Positions 7,575 through 25,904 are shown, counted from the stretch's first letter. The stretch: 64,000 nt of DNA from Longimicrobiales bacterium (GCA_965219445.1 CBDCNQ010000002.1:576001-640000); one strand, 5' to 3'. The notes: generated by a model not told the origin, from the letters alone. Program-made: numbers and translations.

Positions 7575-9169
7575 CCTTCTATGGGGCTGGCGGTCAAGAC
7601 GCACCTTCCCCACGCGCCGTCGGCTCATTTTTTGACCGTCGGCGTCCGCATGGTTTGGATTGCCCGGTCGACGACTCAGGGTGGGGAGGGGTGCGCTCGC
7701 AGGGTCCGCATCGCAGTCCGGAAGACGTTCACAGCCGTCGCGTTCTCCGCTCTGGAGCGGGAACCATCCTTCTATCTGGGACTCTGTGGCCCATCGCTTC
7801 GTTCGGCTCTTCCAGGGGTGCATAGCCTTTGAGTGGGGGCTTGGGCTCTCTGCCCCGGCCCACGGTGTGTATGGATGCTGTCCCCTGTAACCGGTTCGCT
7901 TCCGTTTCGTCGGACCCCATGTTGTGACCGCTTTCGACCCCACGCTCGCCGATCCCAGGCCGGTTTACTCCGTCGCTTCCAGTCTCTTGGGGTCGTACGC
8001 TTCGCCCGTGCGCCACACCGCTAGCACGATCGAGGCGAGCTGACGCGCGATCGTCAGCTTCGCCAGATTCGGCTTCGTGCCCCCCTCCAGGAGTCGCTCG
8101 TAGTGGCGGTACAAGGGTTCGTTTTCGGCCCGACCGATCACCGTCGTCGCCGCGCCCTTGAACACACGCTTCAGCGTGTGGTTGAAGTTCCGATTCAGCC
8201 CCCGCGTCTGCTGTACCGGTTCCCTTACCCACCGCCCACCCGGACCCCGCACCCAGTCCGACGAGCTCCGCATCACCACGCCCAGTCCGCAGTACGCCCA
8301 GAACCTGCTCCGGCTCTGGAACCGGTACGGCGTCACCACCACCGGCAGGAGCTCCGCCGTCCGGATCGGACCCAGACCCGGGCACGTCTTCAGCACATGC
8401 CACTCTCGATGCTTGCGTGCTTCCGCCAGCAACGCCTTCTCGGCCTTCGCCCTCAATGCCACGAGTGCGTCGTGCTCCTCGTACAGCAACCCGGCCGTCG
8501 TCCTGCTCGCTTCCGGCAGCTTGGCCAACCACTCCTCCCGGTCGCGCTTTAAGTAGACCGAGCGCCCCGCGCCGTAGGCCACTCCTCTCGAGCGCAGCAC
8601 GCTCTTGAGCCGGTTCTTCACCCGCACCGTGTCGCCGACCAGGAAGTCGTAGCTCTTCGCCCGTTCCCCCAGCCGCCTGAACTGGCCCCGGTTCTTGTAG
8701 ACCCTCGTCTCCAGTGATCCGATCCGCAGCTTCTCCGCCAGGGCAAACGCGTCCAGCTTGTCGGTCTTCGGGCCCCGGCTCTTGCCGACCCCCGCCACCG
8801 TCAGCTCCTCCACGTGCGGCTCCAGCACCTCGTACAGCCACCCCGACAGCGTCCCTTCTTCCAGGCATAAGTGCCGGTTCCTCGGAATCCCTCGCAGCAC
8901 CTCGATCAGCGCCCGCGCGTTCGTCTCCACCACCTGCGAGCCCAAGCGCTTGCCGCTGGGGCCTACAATCCCCAGCGTGCAGCTCGACGCGTGTGCGTCG
9001 AGTCCGATATATCTCTCCATCGGCGTTCTCCTCTTGGATAGGTGGGTTGCTTCCTTGCGCGAACAATGATGAACGCGCACCCGCTCCCGGAGGAGAACGC
9101 CTCTTCGTCTTCGGGCTGCTTCGCTGCTGATCGGTACCGGTAGCCGTCGCCATGCCCCTATGATGCCTT
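7575..9169 (-). mobile_element. IS110-family (IS1111-like layout) element, copy A
   Basis: Bounded by CCTT at 7575-7578 and 9166-9169; long non-coding region downstream of the transposase; near-identical copies at 25905-27191 and 39552-41145. Confidence 0.9.
7965..9020 (-). CDS. IS110-family DEDD recombinase/transposase
   Basis: YIGLDAH, CLEEG, KTDKLDA (DEDD), TCPGLGP, WAYCGLG..RSSS; start at MERYIG. Confidence 0.92.
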   Translation of the reverse strand: MERYIGLDAHASSCTLGIVGPSGKRLGSQVVETNARALIEVLRGIPRNRHLCLEEGTLSGWLYEVLEPHVEELTVAGVGKSRGPKTDKLDAFALAEKLRIGSLETRVYKNRGQFRRLGERAKSYDFLVGDTVRVKNRLKSVLRSRGVAYGAGRSVYLKRDREEWLAKLPEASRTTAGLLYEEHDALVALRAKAEKALLAEARKHREWHVLKTCPGLGPIRTAELLPVVVTPYRFQSRSRFWAYCGLGVVMRSSSDWVRGPGGRWVREPVQQTRGLNRNFNHTLKRVFKGAATTVIGRAENEPLYRHYERLLEGGTKPNLAKLTIARQLASIVLAVWRTGEAYDPKRLEATE

Positions 9170-9182
9170 TGATCCTAGCTCC

Positions 9183-9240
9183 TGATGTACGCAGGACCAT
9201 CGAGAAGGACGTAGTGAGACAGCCATGCAGGTCTCCACAT
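9183..9240 (-). pseudogene. Start of a third graspetide-operon gene, truncated by IS256
   Basis: TAATG stop/start overlap with the ATP-grasp gene gives MWRPAWLSHYVLLDGPAYI, which runs into the IS256 end. Confidence 0.45.
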
Positions 9241-10229
9241 TAGGAACCCCTACGTCGTGCCGAGCGCGTCCGTCCGAGTAGCTCGGCCAGTTCGGCAGCG
9301 ATCGGAAACTGAACTTCCTCTTGGAGCCACGCCCACTCTCCCGTCGGGTTCACCTCCAGAAAAAAGAAGCGGTCGTCCGAGAGTGCGAGGTCTATTGCCG
9401 CGAAGCTCAGTCCAAGTCGGCGGGTCAACTCGATACAACGGGCTCCGACTGCCTGGGGAAGTGTGAACTCCGAGAAGACTACACTCGATTTCTTCAGCCG
9501 CCAGTCTCCGGCGATCCCGGATCCTCTTTCGGTTGCCGAAGCACACCACCAGCGATCCTCGACCACCGTCACCCGGAGATCCAGCTTGTCCGTCAAAGCT
9601 TGCTGGGCGACGAGCGGAGCTCCGCTCAGTTCTGCCTCTTCGAGTTCTTTTCGGAGCAGGAGATTCGTGTAACCGAAACTCTCGGTTGTCTCCGTCCTGA
9701 CCAAGACCGTGTCCAGCCCCTTGATCGCGACGACGGAACCGTTGACTCGGTCATCGAGAAAGTCGTCTGAGTTCAAGCAGTATGTCGCGGGGATGTCGAA
9801 GCCCACCTCAAATGCAGCCAGAAGCTGAATCATCTTATGTTCAGCTTCATAGGTCCGGGTCGGATGGTTGACCCATCGAGCCATGTCGAAGACCATCAGG
9901 TTGCGCAGGAACGCTGCCCACTGTGCCCGAGCGAATTGCTCCTCCGGTCGGCGTCCAGCTTGCGAAGCCTCCCGAAGAAAGGTTGGCCGTCGAAAGTACA
10001 CGCCTACGAGTCGGTCCGCCTCCACCTCGACGCGAACGTCTTCCGTGTGGCAGGACAACCGCCTCCGACACGGGTCGAGGCACAGCGTGTACGTGGGGAG
10101 GTCCTCGCTGTTAAGTCGGAAGTAGGGATGTCCGGACCTCCGCAGTGCCGATACGACGTAGTCGCACGACAGGTCATACCGGCTGGCGAGAACAAGCACC
10201 TTGGGACGAACCGTCGTGGTCGGAGGCAC
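9240..10229 (-). CDS. ATP-grasp peptide macrocyclase (graspetide synthetase, MvdC/MvdD/RimK-like)
   Basis: DYVV..L, FRLNSED, VYFRRP, WVNHP...AEHKMIQL..A..VGF.IP.T, DLRVTVV, DWR, LGLSFAAIDL, FLEVNPTGEWAWL. Confidence 0.9.
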   Translation of the reverse strand: MPPTTTVRPKVLVLASRYDLSCDYVVSALRRSGHPYFRLNSEDLPTYTLCLDPCRRRLSCHTEDVRVEVEADRLVGVYFRRPTFLREASQAGRRPEEQFARAQWAAFLRNLMVFDMARWVNHPTRTYEAEHKMIQLLAAFEVGFDIPATYCLNSDDFLDDRVNGSVVAIKGLDTVLVRTETTESFGYTNLLLRKELEEAELSGAPLVAQQALTDKLDLRVTVVEDRWWCASATERGSGIAGDWRLKKSSVVFSEFTLPQAVGARCIELTRRLGLSFAAIDLALSDDRFFFLEVNPTGEWAWLQEEVQFPIAAELAELLGRTRSARRRGS

Positions 10230-10247
10230 TACGGCATCCTCAGCGAC

Positions 10248-10463
10248 TCAATAGCCCTTCTGGTCCTCGCCGGTCTCGACATCAGCCTTCTTCGTACGGG
10301 GGGGGGGGTCGGGGTTAGCCGACTCGACAAACAATCCACCGGACGACCGGTCAACCCACGCACCCGCAAGGAGGTCGTAGTCGCAGCCATCAGGCCGCAA
10401 GTCGATGGGCTCACGAGCGTACGCTCGAGCATTCGCCAGTAGTACATGTTGTCGGCTCGCCAT
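10248..10463 (-). CDS. Graspetide precursor peptide (71 aa; core TKKADVETGEDQKGY)
   Basis: Small ORF 18 nt upstream of the ATP-grasp gene with AGGAAGGA RBS. C-terminal core rich in Thr/Lys donors and Asp/Glu acceptors. Confidence 0.82.
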   Translation of the reverse strand: MASRQHVLLANARAYAREPIDLRPDGCDYDLLAGAWVDRSSGGLFVESANPDPPPRTKKADVETGEDQKGY

Positions 10464-10666
10464 GGTATGATCCTTCCTGGGTGACATGATCAGGGGCGTC
10501 GGCAGGACGGGCCGCCGCGAATCGGCGTGCGCGACGCACAGGGCACCGTCTACCTCGAAGCTGGTAGGAGAAGCGCGTTGGGGTCAAGGCTCTGGATTCG
10601 CCCGCCGGTGCCGTCCCTTTGGCCTAGTCCCAGTGGGCTAGTCCAGCTGGTCAACGGGACTTGGCG

Positions 10667-13803
<3,137 letters not shown>

Positions 13804-13804
<1 letters not shown>

Positions 13805-14781
13805 CACTTCAGGAGTCCCGCTTTCCAGGTTTCGGCAAGAGCTGTCGACAGACCACGGGCCACCTTGCCAACGAGTTGGAGAAGGTCCCGCACCTCGTCC
13901 GCTTTGATATGAATCCTCCGACCGACGACAGCCTCCCTGTCCGCCGCCTTGGCGACGTAGGCCTGGTCCACGACTCCCATTCTGTGCGCGATGAGATGGC
14001 GCCTCTGAAAAGCACGAACGAGCGATTGCCATTCACCCGCAGTCACTGCAGAAGACAGGTCTACGCCATAAGCTTCTTGGAGGTGCCTCTTCGCTCCTTC
14101 AAGATTCTGGAAGCTAATCCTGCCCACGATGGCGCGGTTGGTCGCGTTCCTCGCGTAGACTCGGCACAGTTCGCGCCCGAACCCGTCGAAGACCGACACG
14201 CAATCCTCCAACCCGTTCTCGATGAGCCTCCTAGAAACGTCTCTCTCCGTGCTCTCTGCCAAGTCCATCATCTTTGCGACAACTTCGATGTTCTTCTCGA
14301 AGATCTGGAGCGAATTGTGTTGGCCGCAGTCGGGACAAAATGCAAAAACACCGTAGACGGAGTAGCGGAGCGTACAATTGGTACAGACCACCTGGGTTTC
14401 GAGCTGCTTCTCCCTGTAGTGGCGGATCGGCAACAGACTATCGGGCTTGAACGTCAATGAGAACCCGATTCCGAATGGCCCTTTCGGCTCCAGGTTGAAC
14501 TCCATCTTCTTGAGATCCCTGTGGATTGCGTCTGTGACTTCCCGCGTGGCAACCGACTCGATATACTTGACCTGCTCTTTGGTCCAGAAGTAGTCGTGTG
14601 CCGCAGTATGGCCGCAGTACGGGCAGTGGCACGGAAGGTCTTTTCCCTCAAGCCCAGTGCCGAACTCGACCTTGAAGTATCCCTCGCAGTCCGACTGGGG
14701 ACACTCACGGCCCGTGAAGCCGTCTTCATCGGGCTTGATGGGGATCGAAATGCGATTGCCAAGTCTGCGGAGGTGATTCAT
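13804..14781 (-). CDS. Zn-finger protein with C-terminal HEPN-like RxxxxH motif, inserted between hsdS and hsdR
   Basis: Cys clusters [43 protein letters not shown] overlaps at both ends. Confidence 0.7.
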
Positions 14782-16409
14782 CAGGCCGTCATCCCAATGA
14801 TCCGTGCTGTCTTGCCCAATCGTATCTCGCCCGAAATGAGCTTGGGGAGGAGGGCGTCGCGGAGTGCGGTGAGCGTCCGGGATTCGTGGATGTTGCTGAC
14901 GATCCGCCGCAACATCGGCGAAACGGTCCGCTGGAACTCTGAAGCCATGGTATCGGTGGGCCGGCCCAGCTCGTACCTGCGCATGGCCTGCCAACTCGTT
15001 CGAGGCATCTTCGTTCCCGTCGCAGTCTGGCTGGTGTGGGCCACGAACGCTGACGACGAGACGCAGGCCAGGACGAAGGCGGACCACTTCGGCTTCCGTG
15101 CACCCAGCACAACGATATCCGTGGAGCAGAGGCCATCAACCGGAGCGATGCCCACCTTGTGGAAGTAGGGCCTGAGCTTCCCGAACAGAATATCCCCGGC
15201 CTTGAAGGCAGACTTCCTGCTGGAGACGCTCCCAGTCTCGCCCCAGTCGGTCAGAGCGATCGATCCACGGGGCATGTCCGCCAACCCGATGTAGGGCGTA
15301 TCGCTGGCCTCGCTCGCCGGATCAATTCCCTTCCGTCGCAAGGCCGCCACGTCCCCGAGACTCGCAACCTCCCATCCCTCCGGAATCTCGCCCAGTTCGG
15401 AATCCACCAGCCGGTCGGGGAACAGGTCGGCGAGATGGCGCGGTAAGCCCGTGTCGTGGCCTTCCATCTTCGCACGTACCGGATCGAAATCGACGAACCA
15501 CGACTTGAACAGCGCCCGTGCCATCGCCTCCAGCGTCTCATTCATCCGACGGTTCAGCTCTATCTTGTCGTCTAAGGTGCCAAGGATGTGCGCGATTGCA
15601 CGTTGTTCGGAGAGCTTGAGGGGTGGCCACCAGATCGTAGCGAGCTGGCGGGCAGAAACGTTGGGGAATGTGGATCCGGTGGCTTGATTCAAGAGATCGG
15701 GTAAGCTGAACTCGACCACCGCTTGAACGAATGGTTGGAATTGCTGACCTCGCTTATGGCGAAGAGAAGCAATGCCTCTGCCAATCGCGTATTCCTGATC
15801 GGCCCAGTTCATTCGTCCAGTGGTCGATCCTCGAACACAGAAGAGGAGATCGCCGGGATACGCCATCTTCCGGGCATCGGTAGTGAACTGAGCAGGTTCG
15901 GGATGATGCGAGCCAAATTCAGTCGGTCCATTCAGTAACGGTACACCGTCGCCGGATGTGTTGGTGGTATTTCCGGGAGGTGACTGCCCCATCACGATTT
16001 CAGCGCAGATACCAAGCTGGCTAGCTTCTTCAATCGACTCCCCGCTGGTTGATAACGATCGGCACGCTGGACCGGTCGCCTTGGACGTTTCCCTGGGAAC
16101 CTGCACCGCCACGCCATCGCGGCGGACAATGTTGCGGAAGATGTTGTCGATCTTTGCCCAATCGACGACATCAACCTTGAATGGTAGATCGGACTCTCCA
16201 AAGCCTTCGGCCAGAGCCGAGGTTGCGTCTAGTGTCAGTGGCTCATCGCCCATGATCGCAAGATCGAGATCGGAATAGTCCTTCGCCGTCCAGGTCGCGC
16301 GTGATCCGAAGGCAAGCACCTCTCGATCCGGCACGTGCTGGCGGAGAATGCTGCACACGATGGCCCAATGATCGGGCCGGAGGTCAACGCCTGGAGCCGT
16401 CCTACTCAT
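14781..16409 (-). CDS. hsdS: Fusion: minimal nucleotidyltransferase (MNT) + full type I R-M specificity subunit
   Basis: N-terminal FGSRATWTAKDYSDLDL (GSx10DxD) and FKVDVVD; then two TRDs, central EQRAIAHILGTLDDKIELN...EIPEGW and terminal LRDALLPKLISGEI. Confidence 0.9.
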   Translation of the reverse strand: MSRTAPGVDLRPDHWAIVCSILRQHVPDREVLAFGSRATWTAKDYSDLDLAIMGDEPLTLDATSALAEGFGESDLPFKVDVVDWAKIDNIFRNIVRRDGVAVQVPRETSKATGPACRSLSTSGESIEEASQLGICAEIVMGQSPPGNTTNTSGDGVPLLNGPTEFGSHHPEPAQFTTDARKMAYPGDLLFCVRGSTTGRMNWADQEYAIGRGIASLRHKRGQQFQPFVQAVVEFSLPDLLNQATGSTFPNVSARQLATIWWPPLKLSEQRAIAHILGTLDDKIELNRRMNETLEAMARALFKSWFVDFDPVRAKMEGHDTGLPRHLADLFPDRLVDSELGEIPEGWEVASLGDVAALRRKGIDPASEASDTPYIGLADMPRGSIALTDWGETGSVSSRKSAFKAGDILFGKLRPYFHKVGIAPVDGLCSTDIVVLGARKPKWSAFVLACVSSSAFVAHTSQTATGTKMPRTSWQAMRRYELGRPTDTMASEFQRTVSPMLRRIVSNIHESRTLTALRDALLPKLISGEIRLGKTARIIGMTA

Positions 16410-16819
16410 GCTAGACGTTCCCTCAATCTGTCGCGCAGGTAGGTTACCTCTTCGATGAAGCGCGGAATGCCCTCGACCACTTCCTGCGCCACATCCTCGT
16501 TGTAGGTGTGACTGGTCGCTCCACGCAAGTCACGGTAGCCGCGCCAATCCGGCCACTCCCCCAGCAGCAGGCCCTGTTCGTTTCCCGCGCGGATCAGGTC
16601 TTGAAACGTCATCTCATCGAACTGCTCCGGGTTGGCCGCAGTATATTCGAGATAGCGTTTCAGAACCTTATGTCCGAGCTCGTAAGTGAACTCGAATCTC
16701 TGAACCAGACCGTCACGAATCTGGATATCCCTCGTGTCAGCCTCATACCGCGACAGTCCTTCTTCGAGGCGTTGGATCGCTCGTTCGAGGGGTGCAATCT
16801 CGGGCTTACCGTTGGACAT
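16406..16819 (-). CDS. HEPN protein of the HI0074 / nucleotidyltransferase substrate-binding family (HepT-like toxin)
   Basis: [14 protein letters not shown] and RGATSHTY (Rx4HxY); ATGA overlap with MNT::hsdS. Confidence 0.88.
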
Positions 16820-18371
16820 GGTGATCTCCACCCCAGAGTCCCAATGCCTCTAGGTTCTCGGCGATTGCAGCATCGAGCCGAGCGCATTCGGCCTGCTGTT
16901 CGCGAAGCTCGGCGACCATCCGCTTCATCTTGTCGCCGAACGGCTCACCGTCATCTTCCTGCGGCTCCACACCGACATAGCGGCCCGGCGTCAGCACCTG
17001 CCCATGCTTACGCACCTCTTCCAGTGCCGCACTCTTGCAGAAGCCGGCGACATCGGCATAGCCGTCGTCAATCTCGCCGGTGCGCCAAGCATGGTAGGTG
17101 TCGGCGATGCGGGTAATGTCTTTGTCAGTAAGCTCGCGGTGCGTCCGGTCCACCATCCGGCCGAGCTTCCTCGCGTCGATGAACAGGATCTCGCCCTGGC
17201 GCTTGCGTCGGCGCGCCAGGAACCACAGACAGGCGGGAATCTGGGTGGAGTAAAAGAGCTGACCCGGCAGTGCAATCATACAGTCCACTAGCTCCGCCTC
17301 GATCAGGTTCTTCCGAATCTCTCCCTCGCCCGATTGGTTTGAGGACATCGACCCGTTGGCGAGCACGAACCCCGCGACGCCCTTCGGCGCCAAGTGGTGG
17401 ACCATGTGCTGGACCCAGGCGAAGTTGGCGTTGCCCTTCGGCGGGATGCCGTAGCGCCAGCGCTTGTCCTCGACCAGTCGCTCGCCGCCCCAGTCCGAGA
17501 CGTTAAACGGGGGATTGGCGAGGATGAAGTCGGCCTTCAGGTCTGGATGGCGGTCGTTATAGAAGCTGTCGCCGTGGGCGATCTGCCCCCCAATGCCTCG
17601 TATGGCCAAGTTCATCTTCGCGAGCCGCCACGTCGTGTAGTTCGACTCCTGCCCGTAGATCGAGATGTCGCCGCGCGCCTTGCCGCCGTTGCCGTTTCCG
17701 CTGGAGTGGGCGCGAATGAACTCGATCGACTGCACGAACATGCCCGAGGACCCGCAGCAGGGATCGTAGACCCGCCCCCGGTAGGGCTCCAGCATCTCGA
17801 CGAGCAGCTTGACGACGCAACGCGGGGTATAGAACTCGCCGCCCCTCTTGCCCTCGGCACTCGCGAACTGTGAGAGGAAGTACTCGTAGACGCGGCCGAG
17901 CACGTCTCGGGAGCGGGCTTCGGCGTCCCCGACCAGGATGTTGCCGATCATGTCGATCAACTGGCCGAGCCGCTGCTTGTCCAGGGCGGGCCGCGCGTAG
18001 TCCTTGGGCAGCACCTCCTTCAGCCCCGGGTTGTCGCGCTCGATCGCGGCCATGGCGCGATCGACGGTCTGTCCAATGGTCGACTGCCTCGCCTGGGCCT
18101 TCAGGTGTGGCCAGCGGGCTTCCCGCGGCACCCAGAAGATGTTTTCGGCGATGTACTCGTCGCGGTCCTCTGCGGCCTCGTCCCCCCACTTTGCCAACAC
18201 CGCCTCGTGGCGCTCCTCGAAGGCGTCCGAGATGTACTTCAGGAAGACGAGACCGAGCACGACGTGCTTGTACTCGGCCGCATCCATGGAGCCGCGTAGC
18301 GCATCGGCCATCGCCCACAGCTCGGCCTCGTAGCCGGTCGTGGCTCCGCTGTCGTTTTGCGTGCCTGCCAT
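16806..18371 (-). CDS. hsdM: Type I R-M methyltransferase subunit M
   Basis: [37 protein letters not shown] (SAM binding), ANPPFN (catalytic), LTPGRYVG. Confidence 0.96.
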
Positions 18372-19053
18372 TGCTGTCGCGGTCCTCATTCTTCGTCGCT
18401 GTGGAGGAACTTGGGGAGCTGGGTCGTAAGCAAAGATACGACATGGCATCTGTCCTGCCATCGCAGGGATCGCCGACGCAGGGTGTCCCATGCCCGGCGG
18501 ACCTGCGCTGCGCAGGGATCGACTAGTCCGGAAACCGGCGGAGAACACCGTTGAATGATAGGAGATTGGGTGCCGGGCACGATCTCGGCCGATCCCGGGA
18601 ACCATCAGGGGGACGGGCGCCCGTCGTCCCCCGGGTCCGCCTGGGACTGGATGGCTTCCTGGGACCTCCACGACATCTTCAGCCGCTTTCCCGACGACTA
18701 CCAGCTGCAGCCGCGAAACTCATCGTCCCAAAGCCTGCGGGAAGACGCCAACATCCGTGGCGGATCCAGCCTCTACGTGCACTGGTCCCCGAGTGGGAGT
18801 CTGGCGCCAACCAGCATCAGGGTGACCGCTCCATCCGGTGCCTCGGTGCCCGGACACGTCTCGGTCTGGGCATGGAGGATCCGATGAGAGCCCAGATCGC
18901 GAACCTCATCGTCCCCGGATGCACGCTCCTGCATCAGCTGTCGCCCAAGAAGTCGGCCTCCCCTCCCAATAGGTTTTTGTATGTCGTTGCGCGACAGGAT
19001 ACAATAGTCGGCCTAAGGTCGTTGGAACGTTCAAGCCATTGGGAGTTCGACTG

Positions 19054-19362
19054 ATGCCACAAGATCCAGAGAAGCCGATACATCCTGGGAGTTTCGTAAG
19101 GGAACACGTGATTCCGACGGGGATGTCGGTGACGGAGGCCGCCAAACGATTGGGGGTGGGAAGGCCAGCCCTGTCGAAACTGCTGAATGCGCGTTCGTCG
19201 TTGTCTCAGGACATGGCGGTCAAATTGAGGAAGACGTTCGGCGCTGACCCAGAGAAATTGCTCGCTCTGCAAGCAGCATCTGATCGCGGTGTCGGTCGCT
19301 CGAAAGAAATGTCAACACCAGCACACGTCTATGTCCCGCCGTCTATGTCCCGCCGTTTTTGA
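19054..19362 (+). CDS. HigA-family HTH (N-terminal part of a split fusion gene)
   Basis: PIHPG..VRE..IP.GMSVTEAAKRLGVGRPALSKLLN..SSLS.DMA.KL.K.FG; no HigB toxin gene nearby. Confidence 0.85.
   Translation: MPQDPEKPIHPGSFVREHVIPTGMSVTEAAKRLGVGRPALSKLLNARSSLSQDMAVKLRKTFGADPEKLLALQAASDRGVGRSKEMSTPAHVYVPPSMSRRF
19326..19356 (+). repeat. 14-bp tandem duplication (CGTCTATGTCCCGC x2) causing a frameshift
   Basis: Units at 19326-19339 and 19340-19353; removing one joins the HigA frame to the 19359 ORF. Confidence 0.9.
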
Positions 19363-22300
19363 CCATCAAAGCTGACCAGATCGACGGTTGGGCAAAGGGC
19401 AATATTGCTGCTCGCCAATTGCTGCCAGTACTACTGAGGCGGTTGATTCGTTCGACCGGAGAGGCTCTCCGTCAGGTAGACTTCCCAGGTTATGACAATG
19501 CGGAGCGCAAGGGCTGGGATGGCTTGGTCGATGCTGGGGCGGCTACACCGTGGATTTCAGAAGGGAAGTCCGGCTGGGAGCTTGGTACTGGCGCAAATCC
19601 GGGCGACAAAGCCAATAGCGATTATCGTAGCCGCACCGGTTCCGTCTCGTCGGACGAGAGGCGTGAGCACACCTTTATCTTCGTTACAACGCGCAATTGG
19701 CCGGGCAAGAAGGCATGGGAGGAAGCCAAGGATGCGTCGGGCAAATGGAGGGCTGTCCGGGCATTCGACGCGAGCGATCTGGAGCAGTGGTTGGAAGAGT
19801 CGATCCCCGCACAGATATGGCTTGCCGAACAGCTAGGTATTCCAGTCAGAGGATTCGAGACACTCGATCGGTTCTGGCAACGTTGGGCGGACGCAAGCGA
19901 TCCGAGCATCGTACCTGCGATGTTCGAGCCCTCAGTCCAGTCATACTGTGAGACCTTCAAGGAGTGGCTCGAGACAGAGAGGGAACGTCCGTTCGTGGTC
20001 ACGGCCGAATCCAAAGAAGAGGCGATCGCGTTCTTGGCCTGCATGTTTCAAGATAGCGCTATCGCACCGCAGTGGCGTGACCTTCCGGTAGTGTTCGAGT
20101 CGGATGACGAGCTACGGAAGCTGGCTAGCTGCTCGGCTCCCTTCGTTCCGATCGCTAGCACGGACAAGGCTGCCCACGCGTTGGCCGACGTCCACCGTCG
20201 GCTTCACTGTATTGTCGTCTCTCCCCATAACGTCGTCGATTCAACACCCGATATCAGGGTGGACCTATTGCGTCCTCATGCCTTCGTGCAAGCTCTCAAA
20301 TTGATGGGTGTCCCACAGGATGAATCCGAACGACTCGCCCGGGAGTCAGGCTGTTCGCCGACAATCCTCCGGAGGCGCCTCTCGAAGATCGACGCAATCA
20401 GATCACCCGAATGGGCCAAGGACTCACGGACCGCGAGAGATCTGATCCCGATGGCTTTGATCGGAACATGGCACGCAGAGTCAGAGGCCGACTGCGAGGT
20501 TGTCCGAGTCCTCGCGGCCAGGCCATATCGGGAGGTCGAAGAAAGCGTCGCGCGCATGCGGCAGGATAATGACAGTCCTGTGTGGTCCGTTGGGGAGCAT
20601 CGCGGAGTCGTATCAAGAGTTGATGCCCTCTTTGCAATCAACAGACATGTGACTCCAAACGACTTGACTGAGTTTCTATGGCTTGCCGAGTACGTACTCT
20701 CCGAGATCGATCCGGCACTTGACTTACCGGAGGAAAGCAGGTGGGCCGCTGGGCTGTACGGCAAGGTGCGGAATCACTCGTCTGCACTACGTGACGGTCT
20801 CCTTGAGAGCCTTGTCATCCTCTCTATCCACGGGAATGACTTGTTTAGGGATCGGATTGGCACTGTTGTCGACGTTATGGTCGGCCAGTGCATCGAGAAG
20901 TTGCTGACACCTCTGACACTCGAGAAACTCCTATCGCATTGTGATGACCTCCCACGCTATGCCGAGGCCGCACCGGAGGTATTCTTGAAGCTAATCGAAG
21001 AAGACTTGCAACAATCTGACCCGGTCACACTTCGCCTCTTAGAGCCGGTTGACAACAGCAATTTCTTTAGCCGGCTCCCGCGTTCGGGTCTCTTATGGTC
21101 CATGGAATGTCTCGCATGGAAGTACGTTGCACGTGTGAGTGCCATTCTCGCTCGGTTGTCGAGAACCGTCATTGACGACAAGTGGGAAAACAAACCGATT
21201 GCTAGCCTGAAATCGATCTACCGGTCCTGGGTGCCGCAGACAGCGGCCTCCCTGAAGGATAGAATGAAGGCGCTTGAGATGCTGACAAGACGCTTTCCGG
21301 ACATCGGTTGGCAGATCTGCGTTGAACAACTCGAGCGGGCTCCCCGAAGTGGGGACTACAGCTACCGACCGCGCTGGCGGAGTGACGCTTCAGGGGTGGG
21401 TCGACCAGTGCCTAGACCGGAGGCTCGTGAGTTCGAACGTCAGGCCTTCAAGTTAGCGCTCCTGTGGTCGGAACACGATCAGCGGACGCTTGGCGACCTT
21501 GTGACACGGATACAGGTAATGTCCGAAGAAGAACAGCTAGCCCTTTGGGACCGAATCGATGCGTGGCTGGCTTCAAAGCCCAGTGATACTGCCAAAGCAG
21601 ATCTTCGCGAGCGGATTCGTCAGGTCGCGTTCACGAGACTCGGTCAGGGACGCGGCTTCCACACTGCGACCAAGGATCGTGCTCGTCGTGCATACACGAA
21701 TCTACAACCTAAAGATACGGTCATCCGTCACGCTTGGCTATTTGCCGACTCTTGGGTCGAATTCACCGACGATATCGAGGATGAAGATGCTAGCTATTTG
21801 ACGCGCGTGGAGAAATCCCGCCTCCTTCGCACGGCAGCGATCGAAGAAATATGGATGGATCGTGGTTTCGAGGGAGTGAGAACACTTCTATCTCACGGCA
21901 GCACAGCAGAGATCGTCGGAGATTCCCTTAGACTAATCATCTGTCTCAGCGAACAAGCCGATTTCCTACGGAGATGCCTGTCCGTCACGGGTGACTTCGA
22001 GGCGCAGTTTGACCGCTGCATTGGGGGATTACTTAGATCCATCAGCGCCGACGATCGTCACGCGTTACTATTGGCAGCGGCCGATGATGCCAATGTAGAA
22101 CGCACCGCCCGATTGTTTCGGTGCGCTCCATTTGGACAGAAGATATGGCGTCTCATGGACCGATACGGAGAGAAAGTCAGAGCACGGTATTGGGATACAG
22201 TCTTCCCAGAAGTTGGTCGATACAGTGAGGCTGAATCGACTGAGTTGATCGATCGGCTTCTTGAAGCCAGGCGGCCTCGGGCTGTCTTCCATGCCGTGTG

Positions 22301-23132
22301 GTTTGACTGGTCGAGTATTGAAACATCCCGGCTTAAGCGTCTTCTGCTATCCCTAACGTCGGTGGGTGCTATCTCCGAGGAAGGTTATAGACTCGATCCC
22401 CATGATGTCTCCGAGGCCCTTGACTCACTGGACGGTCGACCGGGAGTCAGCCGAGACGACATGGCACAGCTTGAATTCCTGTTCATTACAGCACTTGGCT
22501 ACGCCAATCGTGGCATTCCCAACTTGGAGCGGAAGGTCGCAGAGTCCCCTGCCGAGTTTTTTCGAGCTCTAGCTTTTGCGTGCGACCGCCGGCACCGTGG
22601 AGAAGATCCTCGGGAATTACGAATCGACAACCCTGAGCAGCGAGAAGCGATGGCTCTATCCTGCCTAGATCTCCTTGATCGAGTCAGCATAATCCCGGGT
22701 ACGTCACAGGACGGCGGAATCGATGTCGAGGTGTTATCTACTTGGGTGATGGAAGTCCGTCGCCTCTGTGCAGAACACGACCGCACGGAACTCGGTGACC
22801 AGTATATCGGACAGCTCTTGTCCAAAGCTCCTCCAGATGACGACGGAATGTGGCCATGCCGCGCAATTTGCGAAGTCATGGAGGCAGTTGCATCTGAGCA
22901 TATCGGCAAAGGATTCTGGATGGGAGTCTACAATTCTCGCGGTGTATATTGGGGCAGGCGGGAGGCAGAACAGGAACGGGTGTCCGCTCAGAGGTATCGG
23001 GACTTGGCCGAACAACGTAACGCAGACTATCCTTACGTTTCCAGCGTCCTAAATAGCATCGGTGACACCTACGACCGGGAGGCGAAACAGCTGCAGATAG
23101 AAGCAGAAATCGAGAAACGGCGGAGTGTCTGA
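19359..23132 (+). CDS. Large (~1250 aa) putative defence protein: N-terminal PD-(D/E)xK-like nuclease domain plus long helical region
   Basis: DFPGYD..RKGWDGLV....TPWI.EG.SGWELGT resembles restriction-fold N-termini; visibly lower GC than core genes; stop codon abuts an IS256 IR. Confidence 0.6.
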   Translation: MTIKADQIDGWAKGNIAARQLLPVLLRRLIRSTGEALRQVDFPGYDNAERKGWDGLVDAGAATPWISEGKSGWELGTGANPGDKANSDYRSRTGSVSSDERREHTFIFVTTRNWPGKKAWEEAKDASGKWRAVRAFDASDLEQWLEESIPAQIWLAEQLGIPVRGFETLDRFWQRWADASDPSIVPAMFEPSVQSYCETFKEWLETERERPFVVTAESKEEAIAFLACMFQDSAIAPQWRDLPVVFESDDELRKLASCSAPFVPIASTDKAAHALADVHRRLHCIVVSPHNVVDSTPDIRVDLLRPHAFVQALKLMGVPQDESERLARESGCSPTILRRRLSKIDAIRSPEWAKDSRTARDLIPMALIGTWHAESEADCEVVRVLAARPYREVEESVARMRQDNDSPVWSVGEHRGVVSRVDALFAINRHVTPNDLTEFLWLAEYVLSEIDPALDLPEESRWAAGLYGKVRNHSSALRDGLLESLVILSIHGNDLFRDRIGTVVDVMVGQCIEKLLTPLTLEKLLSHCDDLPRYAEAAPEVFLKLIEEDLQQSDPVTLRLLEPVDNSNFFSRLPRSGLLWSMECLAWKYVARVSAILARLSRTVIDDKWENKPIASLKSIYRSWVPQTAASLKDRMKALEMLTRRFPDIGWQICVEQLERAPRSGDYSYRPRWRSDASGVGRPVPRPEAREFERQAFKLALLWSEHDQRTLGDLVTRIQVMSEEEQLALWDRIDAWLASKPSDTAKADLRERIRQVAFTRLGQGRGFHTATKDRARRAYTNLQPKDTVIRHAWLFADSWVEFTDDIEDEDASYLTRVEKSRLLRTAAIEEIWMDRGFEGVRTLLSHGSTAEIVGDSLRLIICLSEQADFLRRCLSVTGDFEAQFDRCIGGLLRSISADDRHALLLAAADDANVERTARLFRCAPFGQKIWRLMDRYGEKVRARYWDTVFPEVGRYSEAESTELIDRLLEARRPRAVFHAVWFDWSSIETSRLKRLLLSLTSVGAISEEGYRLDPHDVSEALDSLDGRPGVSRDDMAQLEFLFITALGYANRGIPNLERKVAESPAEFFRALAFACDRRHRGEDPRELRIDNPEQREAMALSCLDLLDRVSIIPGTSQDGGIDVEVLSTWVMEVRRLCAEHDRTELGDQYIGQLLSKAPPDDDGMWPCRAICEVMEAVASEHIGKGFWMGVYNSRGVYWGRREAEQERVSAQRYRDLAEQRNADYPYVSSVLNSIGDTYDREAKQLQIEAEIEKRRSV

Positions 23133-23640
23133 GGAGGTTGGGTCAATAGGTGTGTAAACGTATCAGGCGGCGTTTTTCCGCTGTTGGGTTGAGACGGGCT
23201 TTCCGTCTTCGAACTTCCTTCCTTCAAACACGTCCTTGAGGAGGTGAGGAGCGTCGAGCCTTCGGAACCGCTTCTCGGCCACCAAGAGCAACTTCCAGAT
23301 CAGCGCCGTAGCGCTCTCGACCCGCTTGAATCGCTTCGCCGCCGTCGTCCTGAGCCGTAGCGCAGCGAACGGGCTCTCGACCACGTTCGTCGTGCGTAGA
23401 TGCTTCCAGTGATCCTCGGGGAAGTCGTAGAACGCCACCATCCGCTCCCAGTCGTCCTCGAGTACGTCCACCGCCTTCGGATACCACGGCCTGTAGCGCC
23501 TGGCGAACACTTCGCGGGCCTTCACAGCCTCGGCCCGGCTCGGTGCGTAGACCACGGCCCTTGAGAAGATCCTTCGCCTCGCTCTGCTCCCGCTGCGGCA
23601 GCCGGTCCAGCACGTTCCTCATCTTGTGGTTCCAGCACCG
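23133..23640 (-). mobile_element. IS256-family partial copy (3' third of transposase plus IRR)
   Basis: Same IRR as 6204; near-identical C-terminal protein; homology stops at ~23640; internal 1-nt frameshift near 23560. Confidence 0.9.
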
Positions 23641-23960
23641 TCGCTGCGTCGCGGAGGCTGATCAGCACCTTGAAGGCGCTTCCCAACCGGCGCATCAACG
23701 AGGTAGAAGGTCTTCCATTCTTTCCTCTACATACTCGTGCGACTGTCCACTTGGCGGTTGGAGTCGCCGCGGAGTATTTCAATTGCTGAATTTCAACGTG
23801 TTCTGCGTCAACCAAGTTATCGGCGCCAAAGAGTAGGGTGCAGTCCACACCATCCCAGTAGCTTCCATCACCGTTCGTGGCGGTCACCGCCACCTTCTTT
23901 GGCTGGCTGGCGGTGCGGGTATGTGCCGAGGGGTCCGATAGGGTGCGCGCCCATGTGTCG
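23641..23960 (-). pseudogene. Remnant of an N-terminal nuclease-like domain (Cap4/PD-(D/E)xK-like), cut by IS256
   Basis: YWDGVDCTLLFG...EIQQLKYSAA.P..KWTVAR has a D...QxK arrangement like nuclease domains of defence NTPases. Confidence 0.35.
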
Positions 23961-24069
23961 AGATAAATGGCCGTCTTGTTCGACGCTCTCTGCCCACACA
24001 ACACACTGACCTACGGGAGGCGCTCACGGTCGTAAATAGACAGGATTGCGCCTTGTCGTGGACACATCC

Positions 24070-24168
24070 GTGAAAACCATCGCCTACCTCCGTGTTTCCA
24101 CGTGGTCGCAAGACGGCACCTGGCTCAACCACGAACCCAGGAGGCCAAATGTGCCTGCGGCAGAGTGA
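24070..24168 (+). pseudogene. Serine recombinase/resolvase N-terminal stub
   Basis: GTG-KTIAYLRVSTWSQD matches the YxRVST catalytic N-terminus; similarity is lost after ~15 codons. Confidence 0.6.
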
Positions 24169-24170
24169 CT

Positions 24171-24488
24171 TCAGTCTCTCGCGACCGCGAACAGACTCTT
24201 CACCGCGACGACCAAGACCGCGCCCCCCAGGAAGAGCACGAGGTTCGCGATGATCCGGGTCATCCCCTCCCCGATGTAGGGGATCGCTCCGACAGCGCTG
24301 GTCGCTACGATCAGCGCGATCGCCGCTAAGAGGAAGGTCTGACTCTCCTTGTCGCTGATATTCAAGAATCCAACGACCAGGCCGAGCACGGCGAGTACCC
24401 AGCCAAACCACGCTTGTTCAAAGCCTAAGCCTCCGGCCACCGCGATCACCAGTCCAACGAGAAAAGCGTACTTCCCCACGAGTGCCAT
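24171..24488 (-). CDS. Small uncharacterised multi-pass membrane protein
   Basis: AAGGAGG RBS; hydrophobic helices with LGLVVGFLNISDKE..FLLAAIAL and IPYIG motifs. Confidence 0.8.
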   Translation of the reverse strand: MALVGKYAFLVGLVIAVAGGLGFEQAWFGWVLAVLGLVVGFLNISDKESQTFLLAAIALIVATSAVGAIPYIGEGMTRIIANLVLFLGGAVLVVAVKSLFAVARD

Positions 24489-24571
24489 TGTTCCTCCTTG
24501 CTAGGAAACGGCAGTGCGGATACATGAAACTGTCCCGGGTTTGAGGTCGGGTCAATAGGTGTGTAAACGTT

Positions 24572-25816
24572 TCAGGCGGCTGCTTTGCGCTGATGAGCTG
24601 AGACGGGCTTACCGTCCCTGAACTTCCTTTCTTCAAACACGTCCTTGAGCAGGTTTGGAGCGTCAAGCCTTCTGAAGCGTTTCTCCGCCACCGTCAGGAG
24701 CTTCCAGATGAGGGCGGTAGCACCTGTCGACGCGCTTAAATCGTTTTGCTGCCGACGTGCGGAGCCGTACCGAAGCGAACGGGCTTTCCACCACATTCGT
24801 CGTCCGTAGATGCTTCCAGTGGGCTTCGGGGAAGTCGTAGAACGTGACCATGCGGTCCCAGTCATCCTCGAGCACCGTCACAGCTTTCGGGTACCACGGC
24901 CCATAACGCTTGCCGAACGCCTGACGAGCTTTGAGCGCCGCGGCCCGTGTCGAGGCGTAGACGACTGTGCGCAGCAGTTCCTTGGCCTCTGACTGCCCGC
25001 GCTGCGGCAGCCGATCCAGGATGTTCCTCATCTTGTGATTCCAGCACCGCTGCTCGCCGGCCTCAGGCCACACCGTCCTCGCCGCGCCCCAGATCGCCGC
25101 GTTACCGTCGGCCATCAGTAGCTTCGGCGCTGCGAGGCCTCGAGCCTTGAGACCCCGAAAGACCTCCGCCCACGAGTCCGTTGACTCCCGGTAGCCTGAT
25201 GTGACGGCCAGAACCTCTTTCGTCCCGTCGCGCATGGCTCCCATCACCACCAGCAGCGCCGCTTTGTCTCGCTCCAGGCCCGCCTTCACGTAGATCCCGT
25301 CCGCCCATACGTAGACGACCTCACGGTCCGCCAAGGACCGCTTCGCCCACATCTCGAACTCACTCGACCACACGGCCCTGAGCCTGCGGATCGAAGCCTT
25401 CGACAGCGGCGCCCCCTCACCGAGTGGGCCCCTGAGCGCCAGCTCGAAATCCCCCGCGGCCAACCCGTGTAGGTACAGCTCCGGTATCAACTCCCCTACC
25501 TCCTTCGTCCGTCTCGCAAACAGCGGCAACACCGACTCTCGAAGCGTTCCTCCAGACCCCGTACCCGGGGGCGTCGCACCGTGATCGTGCCCGAACTCAT
25601 CGACAGCCGCCGCGCCTTGCCGTACCCGTTGCGGTAGCCAGGCGCCGCATCCACGGCTGCCTTCCGCTCTGACTTCTCACGGCCGAGGAGCTCGGTGACT
25701 TCCTCCTCCAAGATCTGTTGGATGAACTCCCGGGCCTTTTCACGGACCACTCCCTCCAGGCCCTCCCACAGCGGCATGGTGGACTCGGTCTCGGGTCCCG
25801 CGATATCCTTCCTCAT
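24572..25816 (-). pseudogene. IS256 transposase variant, two frameshifts
   Basis: Three overlapping ORF pieces (25496-25846, 24663-25532, 24572-24865) rebuild a homologue of 6234-7478 with many amino-acid differences. Confidence 0.88.
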
Positions 25817-25904
25817 GAGGCGACGTTCCTTTCCCCCGGGTGGCAACCCGGGACTCGCTGCTTAATGGTCAGCGGAAAGGTACGTCGCCTCTCTTTTTAC
25901 ACAC

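Follow-up and report, generated by a model that had tools for sequence, protein, structure and literature searches.

A predicted MNT antitoxin domain fused to the type I specificity subunit HsdS: a recurrent variant of HEPN-MNT pairs in restriction-modification operons

What is a predicted antitoxin domain doing on the subunit that tells a restriction enzyme which DNA to recognise? The question is raised by a 64,000-nucleotide (nt) stretch of a Longimicrobiales bacterium (GCA_965219445.1 CBDCNQ010000002.1:576001-640000), here called the window, in which one gene of a type I restriction-modification (R-M) operon joins an MNT domain to the specificity subunit HsdS, directly downstream of a gene for a HEPN protein. 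The fusion is a real, widespread and repeatedly evolved variant of known systems, present in the databases and unremarked there. It joins two well-studied systems, and databases file such proteins as plain HsdS. The join likely locks the HEPN-MNT pair into the operon, rather than sensing the state of the restriction enzyme.

The fused protein and its HEPN partner

The two overlapping genes and the parts of the fused protein are:
16406..16819, minus strand: predicted HEPN toxin of the HI0074 family, 137 amino acids (aa) (PF08780; TIGR01987; PDB 1jog and 8xdj by sequence)
14781..16409, minus strand: MNT::HsdS fusion gene, 542 aa (domain matches; junction bridged in public runs)
16101..16397, minus strand: MNT domain, about residues 5-103, with G35-S36, D47, D49 and D80 (Pfam; 1no5 match)
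16035..16100, minus strand: linker, residues 104-125, predicted disordered (pLDDT <50)
15624..16022, minus strand: first target recognition domain (TRD1), approximate bounds (Methylase_S stretch; 3okg match)
15369..15614, minus strand: CR1, the central conserved region, residues 266-347 (conserved alignment block; long helix 266-306 in the model)
14919..15368, minus strand: TRD2, approximate bounds (swapped for unrelated TRDs in close relatives)
14790..14918, minus strand: CR2, the C-terminal conserved region (alignment and predicted model)

The 542-aa protein carries a Polbeta/NTP_transf_2 domain above cut-off at residues 21-99 (28.4 bits against PF01909, cut-off 21) and two Methylase_S stretches. 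Its MNT part matches HI0073 (PDB 1no5, E 1e-23, residues 8-108), and the remainder matches solved HsdS structures by sequence. The GSx10DxD motif, GSRATWTAKDYSDLD, begins at G35 and spans residues 35-49. In an AlphaFold model (mean pLDDT 81.7, pTM 0.66), the MNT is folded, the linker (104-125) has low confidence and the remainder adopts an HsdS fold. The predicted MNT fold aligns with 1no5 at a TM-score of 0.90 to the target, and the HsdS part shows the TRD1-CR1-TRD2-CR2 fold, with Foldseek matches to 1yf2, 7vru and 1ydx. Pfam, PDB matches and model thus bear out the sequence-only reading of this locus, which had described a 542-aa open reading frame (ORF) joining an MNT domain to a two-TRD HsdS. 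The fusion scores 36.6 against the cut-off of 60 of the NCBIfam MntA equivalog NF047752, and its MNT domain is without the long C-terminal helix of MntA. Sequence comparison places this MNT in a different subfamily from the MntA equivalog, closest to HI0073.

The HEPN protein scores 113 bits against PF08780 (cut-off 31.8) and 79.9 against TIGR01987 HI0074 (cut-off 55.8). Its motif RGATSHTY occupies residues 99-106 (R99-x4-H104-x-Y106), and its stop codon overlaps the ATG of the fusion as ATGA, as had been read from the sequence. By themselves the two motifs are no more frequent than chance would allow, matching 5 and 15 times across the window's six frames, so the identification rests on hidden Markov model (HMM) domain matches. 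PMC7641770 defines a class I HepT/MntA pair by a HEPN from PF08780 or PF01934 that carries RX4HXY, beside an MNT from PF01909 that carries GSX10DXD; by that published definition the earlier assignment to HepT/MntA (type VII) stands. At the second position of its motif the window HEPN has Gly, shared by 8 of 77 HEPNs, where Asn is usual. This may be without consequence, since Q44 and E47 are catalytic in the Legionella HEPN, where R98A and H103A had little effect (PMC11586414), and Q40/E43 of the window HEPN align with Q44/E47 of 8xdj.

By analogy with characterised relatives, the window HEPN would be a toxic RNase, and the MNT would AMPylate Tyr106 and neutralise it (PMC7641770, PMC11586414). 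One protein is therefore likely both a DNA-recognition subunit and the AMP-adding silencer of the HEPN.

Recurrence, origins and upkeep of the fusion

Is the join more than an accident of one assembly? Of 8 public runs compared, 7 (from 7 studies) have contigs that span the junction (about 16020-16100) with neither an indel nor a stop. One of the seven may be the source sample itself; the eighth run is RNA, and its coverage included TRD2 and CR1, with the junction uncovered. Of the 1078 candidates from a search with residues 1-110, 912 are proteins 298-949 aa long, and 119 of 120 among the matches listed (the window's own included) run on into the HsdS central region. The fused form also lies on plasmid pZMOB01 of a cultured isolate, Zymomonas mobilis ATCC 10988, in RefSeq. 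Nothing was found in favour of a misassembly or of accidental read-through confined to a single genome, and this recurrence puts both practically out of the question.

A pattern scan of GTDB contigs, biased toward the window's motif, yielded at least 67 loci; among the matches listed, 56 of the 67 are fused, and record titles cover at least 12 phyla. Searching whole genomes with profiles is free of that motif bias. Across 401 genomes of the host phylum there are 55 MNT matches, 19 of them fused to HsdS; across 401 of a second phylum, that of G401 (a genome picked as sample centre because it is fused), there are 126, with 16 fused to HsdS and 1 to HsdM. All MNT matches with an open frame of at least 200 aa were inspected individually. 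Since the host-phylum matches cluster in two families, these kin are not independent. Counted from the HsdS side, at least 27 of 52 family genes are fused in the host-phylum sample (13 rows were left out of sequence inspection) and 16 of 44 in the other. On three Acetobacter plasmids the gene order is unchanged and the MNT and hsdS genes are split, hsdS having its own start. A distant DNA search gave no match in E. coli genomes. One weak phage match was also seen.

The host itself has a second, plain hsdM-hsdS-hsdR system of the same family (L184, G000:C1:195500-203500), whose HsdM is identical to that of the window at 454 of 515 positions (88%) and HsdR at 763 of 838; the two systems might exchange subunits. 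In two other plain systems (L187, L190) the hsdM-hsdS slot holds other cargo as separate genes, which we take by resemblance to be RhuM-like and DUF1016-like.

The hsdM-hsdS slot holds fusions of three MNT subfamilies, 23-32% identical to one another, and a distinct HEPN type goes with each. Their motifs are GSRxxWTAKDYSDLD in the window's subfamily, GSRVNGRxHxGSDLD in the second and GSRATGTNTVTSDVD in the third. On a 150-row MNT tree (about 100 columns, rough bootstrap) the fused state changes 31 times, at least 16 of them forced by well-supported branches, gains and losses being indistinguishable there. Stand-alone HEPN-MNT pairs nest among fused ones, and monophyly of 37 fused rows is rejected in a hand-picked 72-row subset (approximately unbiased test, p-AU 3e-103). 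From these sequences, the fusion arose more than once in distant MNT lineages. That it would recur next to HEPN genes elsewhere has held up: it is widespread, of more than one origin, and nearly always with HsdS.

Some relatives carry further insertions. HsdS proteins with two tandem MNT-like domains, some from different subfamilies, occur in L038, L159, L178, P0016 and P0108; their arrangement suggests successive captures. In P0041, P0042 and P0070 a DUF559 domain is inserted in the central conserved region of MNT::HsdS.

The pair appears to be maintained. Median ratios of nonsynonymous to synonymous substitution (Nei-Gojobori; 26 non-overlapping pairs, restricted to HEPNs >60% identical) are 0.17 for MNT (25 pairs), 0.13 for HEPN (24), 0.15 for CR1 (26) and 0.14 for HsdM (19), which by sequence places HEPN and MNT both under purifying selection. 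In subfamilies 1 and 2, GSx10DxD is kept in 89 of 90 distinct fused MNTs. Alternatively, the MNT might have been co-opted to modify the R-M enzyme (e.g. by AMPylating HsdM or HsdR), with the HEPN incidental. Three loci with the MNT motif kept and no HEPN found upstream (L053, L064, L131) speak for such co-option, as do three whose HEPN is without the acceptor Tyr (L103, L110, L112). However, the HEPN lies directly upstream in 86 of the 90 fused loci, Rx4HxY is kept in 77 of 82 near-complete HEPNs, and in L113, where the HEPN is absent, the catalytic Asp has decayed, the MNT motif being degraded to DxN. Co-option is therefore highly improbable.

What the join might do

On a narrow balance of probability, HsdS here carries the antitoxin half of a functional class I HepT/MntA-type pair, and the loss of the hsdS start keeps the pair in place, with no allosteric signalling involved. 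Mobile HEPN-MNT pairs would settle in the hsdM-hsdS slot. Once the stop codon of the MNT gene and the start of hsdS are lost, the MNT would become a tolerated N-terminal passenger on a floppy tether. With no start of its own left to hsdS, the pair would then be locked in: clean removal of the antitoxin would be impossible without losing the hsdS start, and an hsdS deletion extending into the MNT would free the toxin. The antitoxin dose would track HsdS synthesis 1:1, and the pair would probably act as a second, RNA-targeting stress or defence layer co-expressed with the R-M system.

The linkers are informative here. Across 83 loci they are estimated at 6-70 residues (median 35), with unrelated sequences. 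That of the window (locus L068) has no in-frame ATG or GTG preceded by a Shine-Dalgarno-like site. Linkers in L014, L016, L019, L028, L039 and L046 contain G[MV]AGEW-like words resembling the overlap of hsdM end and hsdS start in plain operons, and these words are likely relics of the old hsdS start. Internal starts seemed over-represented in the linkers (18 of 83, with 3.6 expected), a signal set aside because most of them lie on Val codons of the last MNT strand. A direct repeat between hsdM end and linker was not found (at least 9 nt in 2 of 71, against 3 in controls). Allosteric coupling is made less likely by the predicted disordered, variable linker, by the split Acetobacter form and by sister pairs that stand alone.

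The sequence-only reading had also proposed an addiction device that stops loss or swapping of hsdS, and this part is not supported for swapping or inactivation. Behind near-identical MNTs, TRD1 and TRD2 exchange freely: 100 full-length fusions hold 22 TRD1 types and 23 TRD2 types in 75 combinations, and unrelated TRD1s occur in proteins whose MNT is about 90% identical to the window's. HEPN partners change as well (63 of 206 pairs with MNTs at least 72% identical have HEPNs <45% identical). Nor is hsdS inactivation prevented. Disruption of the gene is seen in 11 loci, through an in-frame deletion in 3 and a truncation or frameshift in 8, and L019, L037 and L093 have kept an intact HEPN motif beside a truncated or frameshifted hsdS. 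Addiction is possible only for deletions that remove the MNT and spare the HEPN.

Several observations weigh against simple lock-in. The 181 sampled MNT matches include 35 fused to HsdS, 1 to a truncated TRD1 and 1 to HsdM, with no other long fusion partner among them. The slot is mostly fused, 90 distinct fused MNTs standing against one split lineage. A partner that is nearly always HsdS and a fused majority would be expected under selection for tethering to the methylase. hsdM is in one piece in 68 of 71 fused loci, with no clean loss among the three exceptions (one with hsdM downstream, one decayed throughout, one with many frameshifts). Seven proteins found by a search aimed at such forms have lost both TRDs, with different breakpoints, and yet retain MNT, CR1 and CR2. 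Trp40 is present in 20 of 21 fused and 10 of 25 stand-alone main-clade MNTs, a difference not significant after phylogenetic pairing. Finally, covalent AMPylation would be expected to weaken classical post-segregational killing. The nearly exclusive HsdS partner, the fused majority, the intact hsdM, the TRD-less forms, including those of two genomes with no HsdR found, and the MNT::HsdM locus are also compatible with a ratchet of the lock-in kind plus ordinary operon decay.

Two of these signals were rejected as proof. The first Trp40 signal was biased by the pattern used in the search; the association persists in HMM-sampled loci, but the independent pairs are too few for a fusion signature (median p 0.25), and subfamilies 2 and 3 are without Trp40. 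The TRD-less forms do not prove selection, because the search targeted them and in-frame deletions make up 3 of 11 disruptions in unselected loci. Even with the TRDs gone and the MNT directly next to CR1, the model of one such form reaches pTM 0.48, which counts in favour of lock-in. One locus, L158 (G435:C222, 3193-6879), holds a HEPN, an MNT::HsdM, a second HEPN and then an MNT fused to an HsdS lacking both TRDs through in-frame loss; L160 has a similar TRD-less form with different breakpoints.

That fusion has recurred with HsdS as the specific partner, and on one occasion involved HsdM, could instead point to a guard against anti-restriction, as the sequence-only reading had suggested. A phage DNA mimic such as Ocr or ArdA, or some other inhibitor, binding the M2S methylase would block the tethered MNT, newly made HEPN would stay unmodified and the infected cell would arrest. 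Precedents, by other means, are PrrC with EcoprrI (PMC3710099) and Ronin (bioRxiv 10.1101/2023.04.06.535777 and PMC12707154). A decoy-like pair of genomes has hsdM, HEPN and TRD-less MNT::HsdS with no HsdR found, in incomplete assemblies and with a control genome positive. Yet a guard is unlikely. The linker is predicted to be disordered, with neither its length nor its sequence constant; a shared contact would be needed across three MNT subfamilies at 23-32% identity; close sister pairs occur without any hsd gene; TRD-less forms would lack the surfaces expected to bind a DNA mimic; and the share of in-frame deletions among disrupted hsdS genes is near chance.

An assembly sensor would ask less of the linker, since the tether alone suffices, which fits both the floppy linker and the presence of several MNT subfamilies. 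Without its HsdM partner, HsdS would dissolve poorly or be degraded, so the fused antitoxin would last only inside M2S, and loss or disruption of HsdM would release the toxin. Consistent with this, none of the 71 loci combines a clean full-length fusion and intact HEPN with a missing hsdM, and loci with a disrupted hsdM (L009, L052, L059, L084, L093) have either a detached MNT or a damaged HEPN. However, ordinary joint decay of the operon gives the same pattern, the host's second HsdM could mask such a sensor, and split forms persist. Such a sensor is decidedly unlikely. A broader proposal, possible if rather doubtful, is that type I methylases repeatedly captured an AMP-adding antitoxin, that the HEPN is silent only while M2S is intact, and that TRD-less, HsdR-less versions are decoys keeping only the HsdM-binding helices.

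Lock-in, if true, would show a toxin-antitoxin pair securing itself in a restriction operon and travelling with it while specificities shuffle. A guard or assembly sensor, if true, would be a new wiring of cell arrest to restriction failure through a covalent-modification antitoxin, in contrast to the direct binding in PrrC or Ronin. The fused plasmid copy in Zymomonas and the natural split control on the Acetobacter plasmids make these readings cheaply separable. A ZM4 hsdSp deletion strain was rejected as a test, being a different system: the ZM4 plasmid R-M has another gene order (PMC8432527), and it gave no DNA match.

The operon and its place among known systems

On the minus strand, five coupled genes follow in the order hsdM, HEPN, MNT::HsdS, a 325-aa Zn-ribbon ORF and hsdR. 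The three besides the pair are:
16806..18389, minus strand: hsdM, type I N6-methyltransferase, start at 18389 or 18371 (PF02384 and PF12161 above cut-off; DPCCGSSG and NPPF motifs)
13804..14781, minus strand: variable cargo ORF, 325 aa, between hsdS and hsdR (Cys-pair Zn ribbons and an RHxxxH motif, Rx4H)
10667..13807, minus strand: hsdR, 1046 aa, with a HindI-like C-terminus, PF11867 (TIGR00348 573 bits, cut-off 284.55; Pfam; GSGKS and DEAH motifs)

All three type I subunits are present and intact by Pfam, TIGR00348 and motifs. HsdM scores 184.7, below the TIGR00497 cut-off of 242.75, yet above both Pfam cut-offs. hsdM lies directly 5' of the HEPN gene and ends, stop codon included, 14 nt inside it. 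Among related fused loci, hsdR lies within the retrieved flank in 46 of 54. No sigma-70-like promoter was detected across 13500-19100.

The cargo ORF has no Pfam family above cut-off, a partial match to PADLOC PDC-M14A, matches in unnamed Atlas clusters and homologues on 16 plasmid records; among the matches listed it is found in 1 of 67 related loci. Its RHxxxH motif is kept in 4 of 4 aligned homologues, and by this sequence feature it is possibly a second HEPN-like RNase. At 19039-23132 (plus strand), a divergent pair comprises a gene for a 107-aa HTH_3 protein overlapping one for a 1257-aa protein, the latter without a match in Pfam, NCBIfam or PADLOC. Just 3' of hsdR, at 9240-10487 (minus strand), a weak RimK-like ATP-grasp gene (E 0.004) follows a 79-aa ORF, presumably an ATP-grasp peptide cluster. 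Transposase-like ORFs at 7965-9200 and 23163-25846 (minus strand) flank the region; we take them, from the look of their translations, to be IS110-like and IS256-like.

No description of an MNT::HsdS fusion was found in the full-text literature, a coverage outside which most subscription papers, and likewise REBASE, fall. The architecture lists in the supplement of PMC3710099 may contain it. The PADLOC model PDLC03138 (Specificity_I) already spans the MNT region as part of its HsdS profile, and RefSeq labels the Zymomonas fusion only 'restriction endonuclease subunit S'.

Closest in kind are the HepT/MntA pairs (Shewanella SO_3166/SO_3165; Legionella 8xdj/8xeh; HI0074/HI0073, 1jog/1no5), with which the window pair shares both families and both motifs. 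Like the HI0073 and Legionella proteins, its MNT is short and without a long C-terminal helix, and its HEPN has the Q/E metal site reported as catalytic in Legionella (PMC11586414). It differs in that its MNT is the N-terminal domain of HsdS, in scoring below the MntA equivalog cut-off and in the Gly of its HEPN motif. The toxin gene also precedes that of the antitoxin; according to PMC3710099, the MNT gene nearly always comes first (5').

The same source proposes a PrrC-like logic in general for many R-M-linked HEPNs and describes another MNT-linked HEPN family, HEPN-T, that clusters with R-M operons (PMC3710099). As in PrrC with EcoprrI, a HEPN RNase, here a predicted one, is encoded inside a type I R-M operon. 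However, PrrC is an ABC-ATPase-HEPN held inactive by the R-M enzyme, whereas the window HEPN stands alone, with a single Pfam family and no fused ABC-ATPase in its 137 aa, and the enzyme predicted to silence it acts by covalent modification and is carried on HsdS.

Ronin, an HsdMS decoy with RonA, likewise ties a toxic effector (predicted here) to HsdM and HsdS, and two related loci are also TRD-less with no HsdR found. Ronin consists of hsdM and hsdS without hsdR, plus RonA, a 61-aa membrane toxin; the window has a full hsdR and a predicted RNase-type toxin with its own predicted antitoxin. Plain HindI-like hsdM-hsdS-hsdR systems, of which the same genome holds a copy, have an HsdS with the same TRD1-CR1-TRD2-CR2 layout, fold and TRD shuffling. 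The window HsdS differs from these in carrying about 125 extra N-terminal residues.

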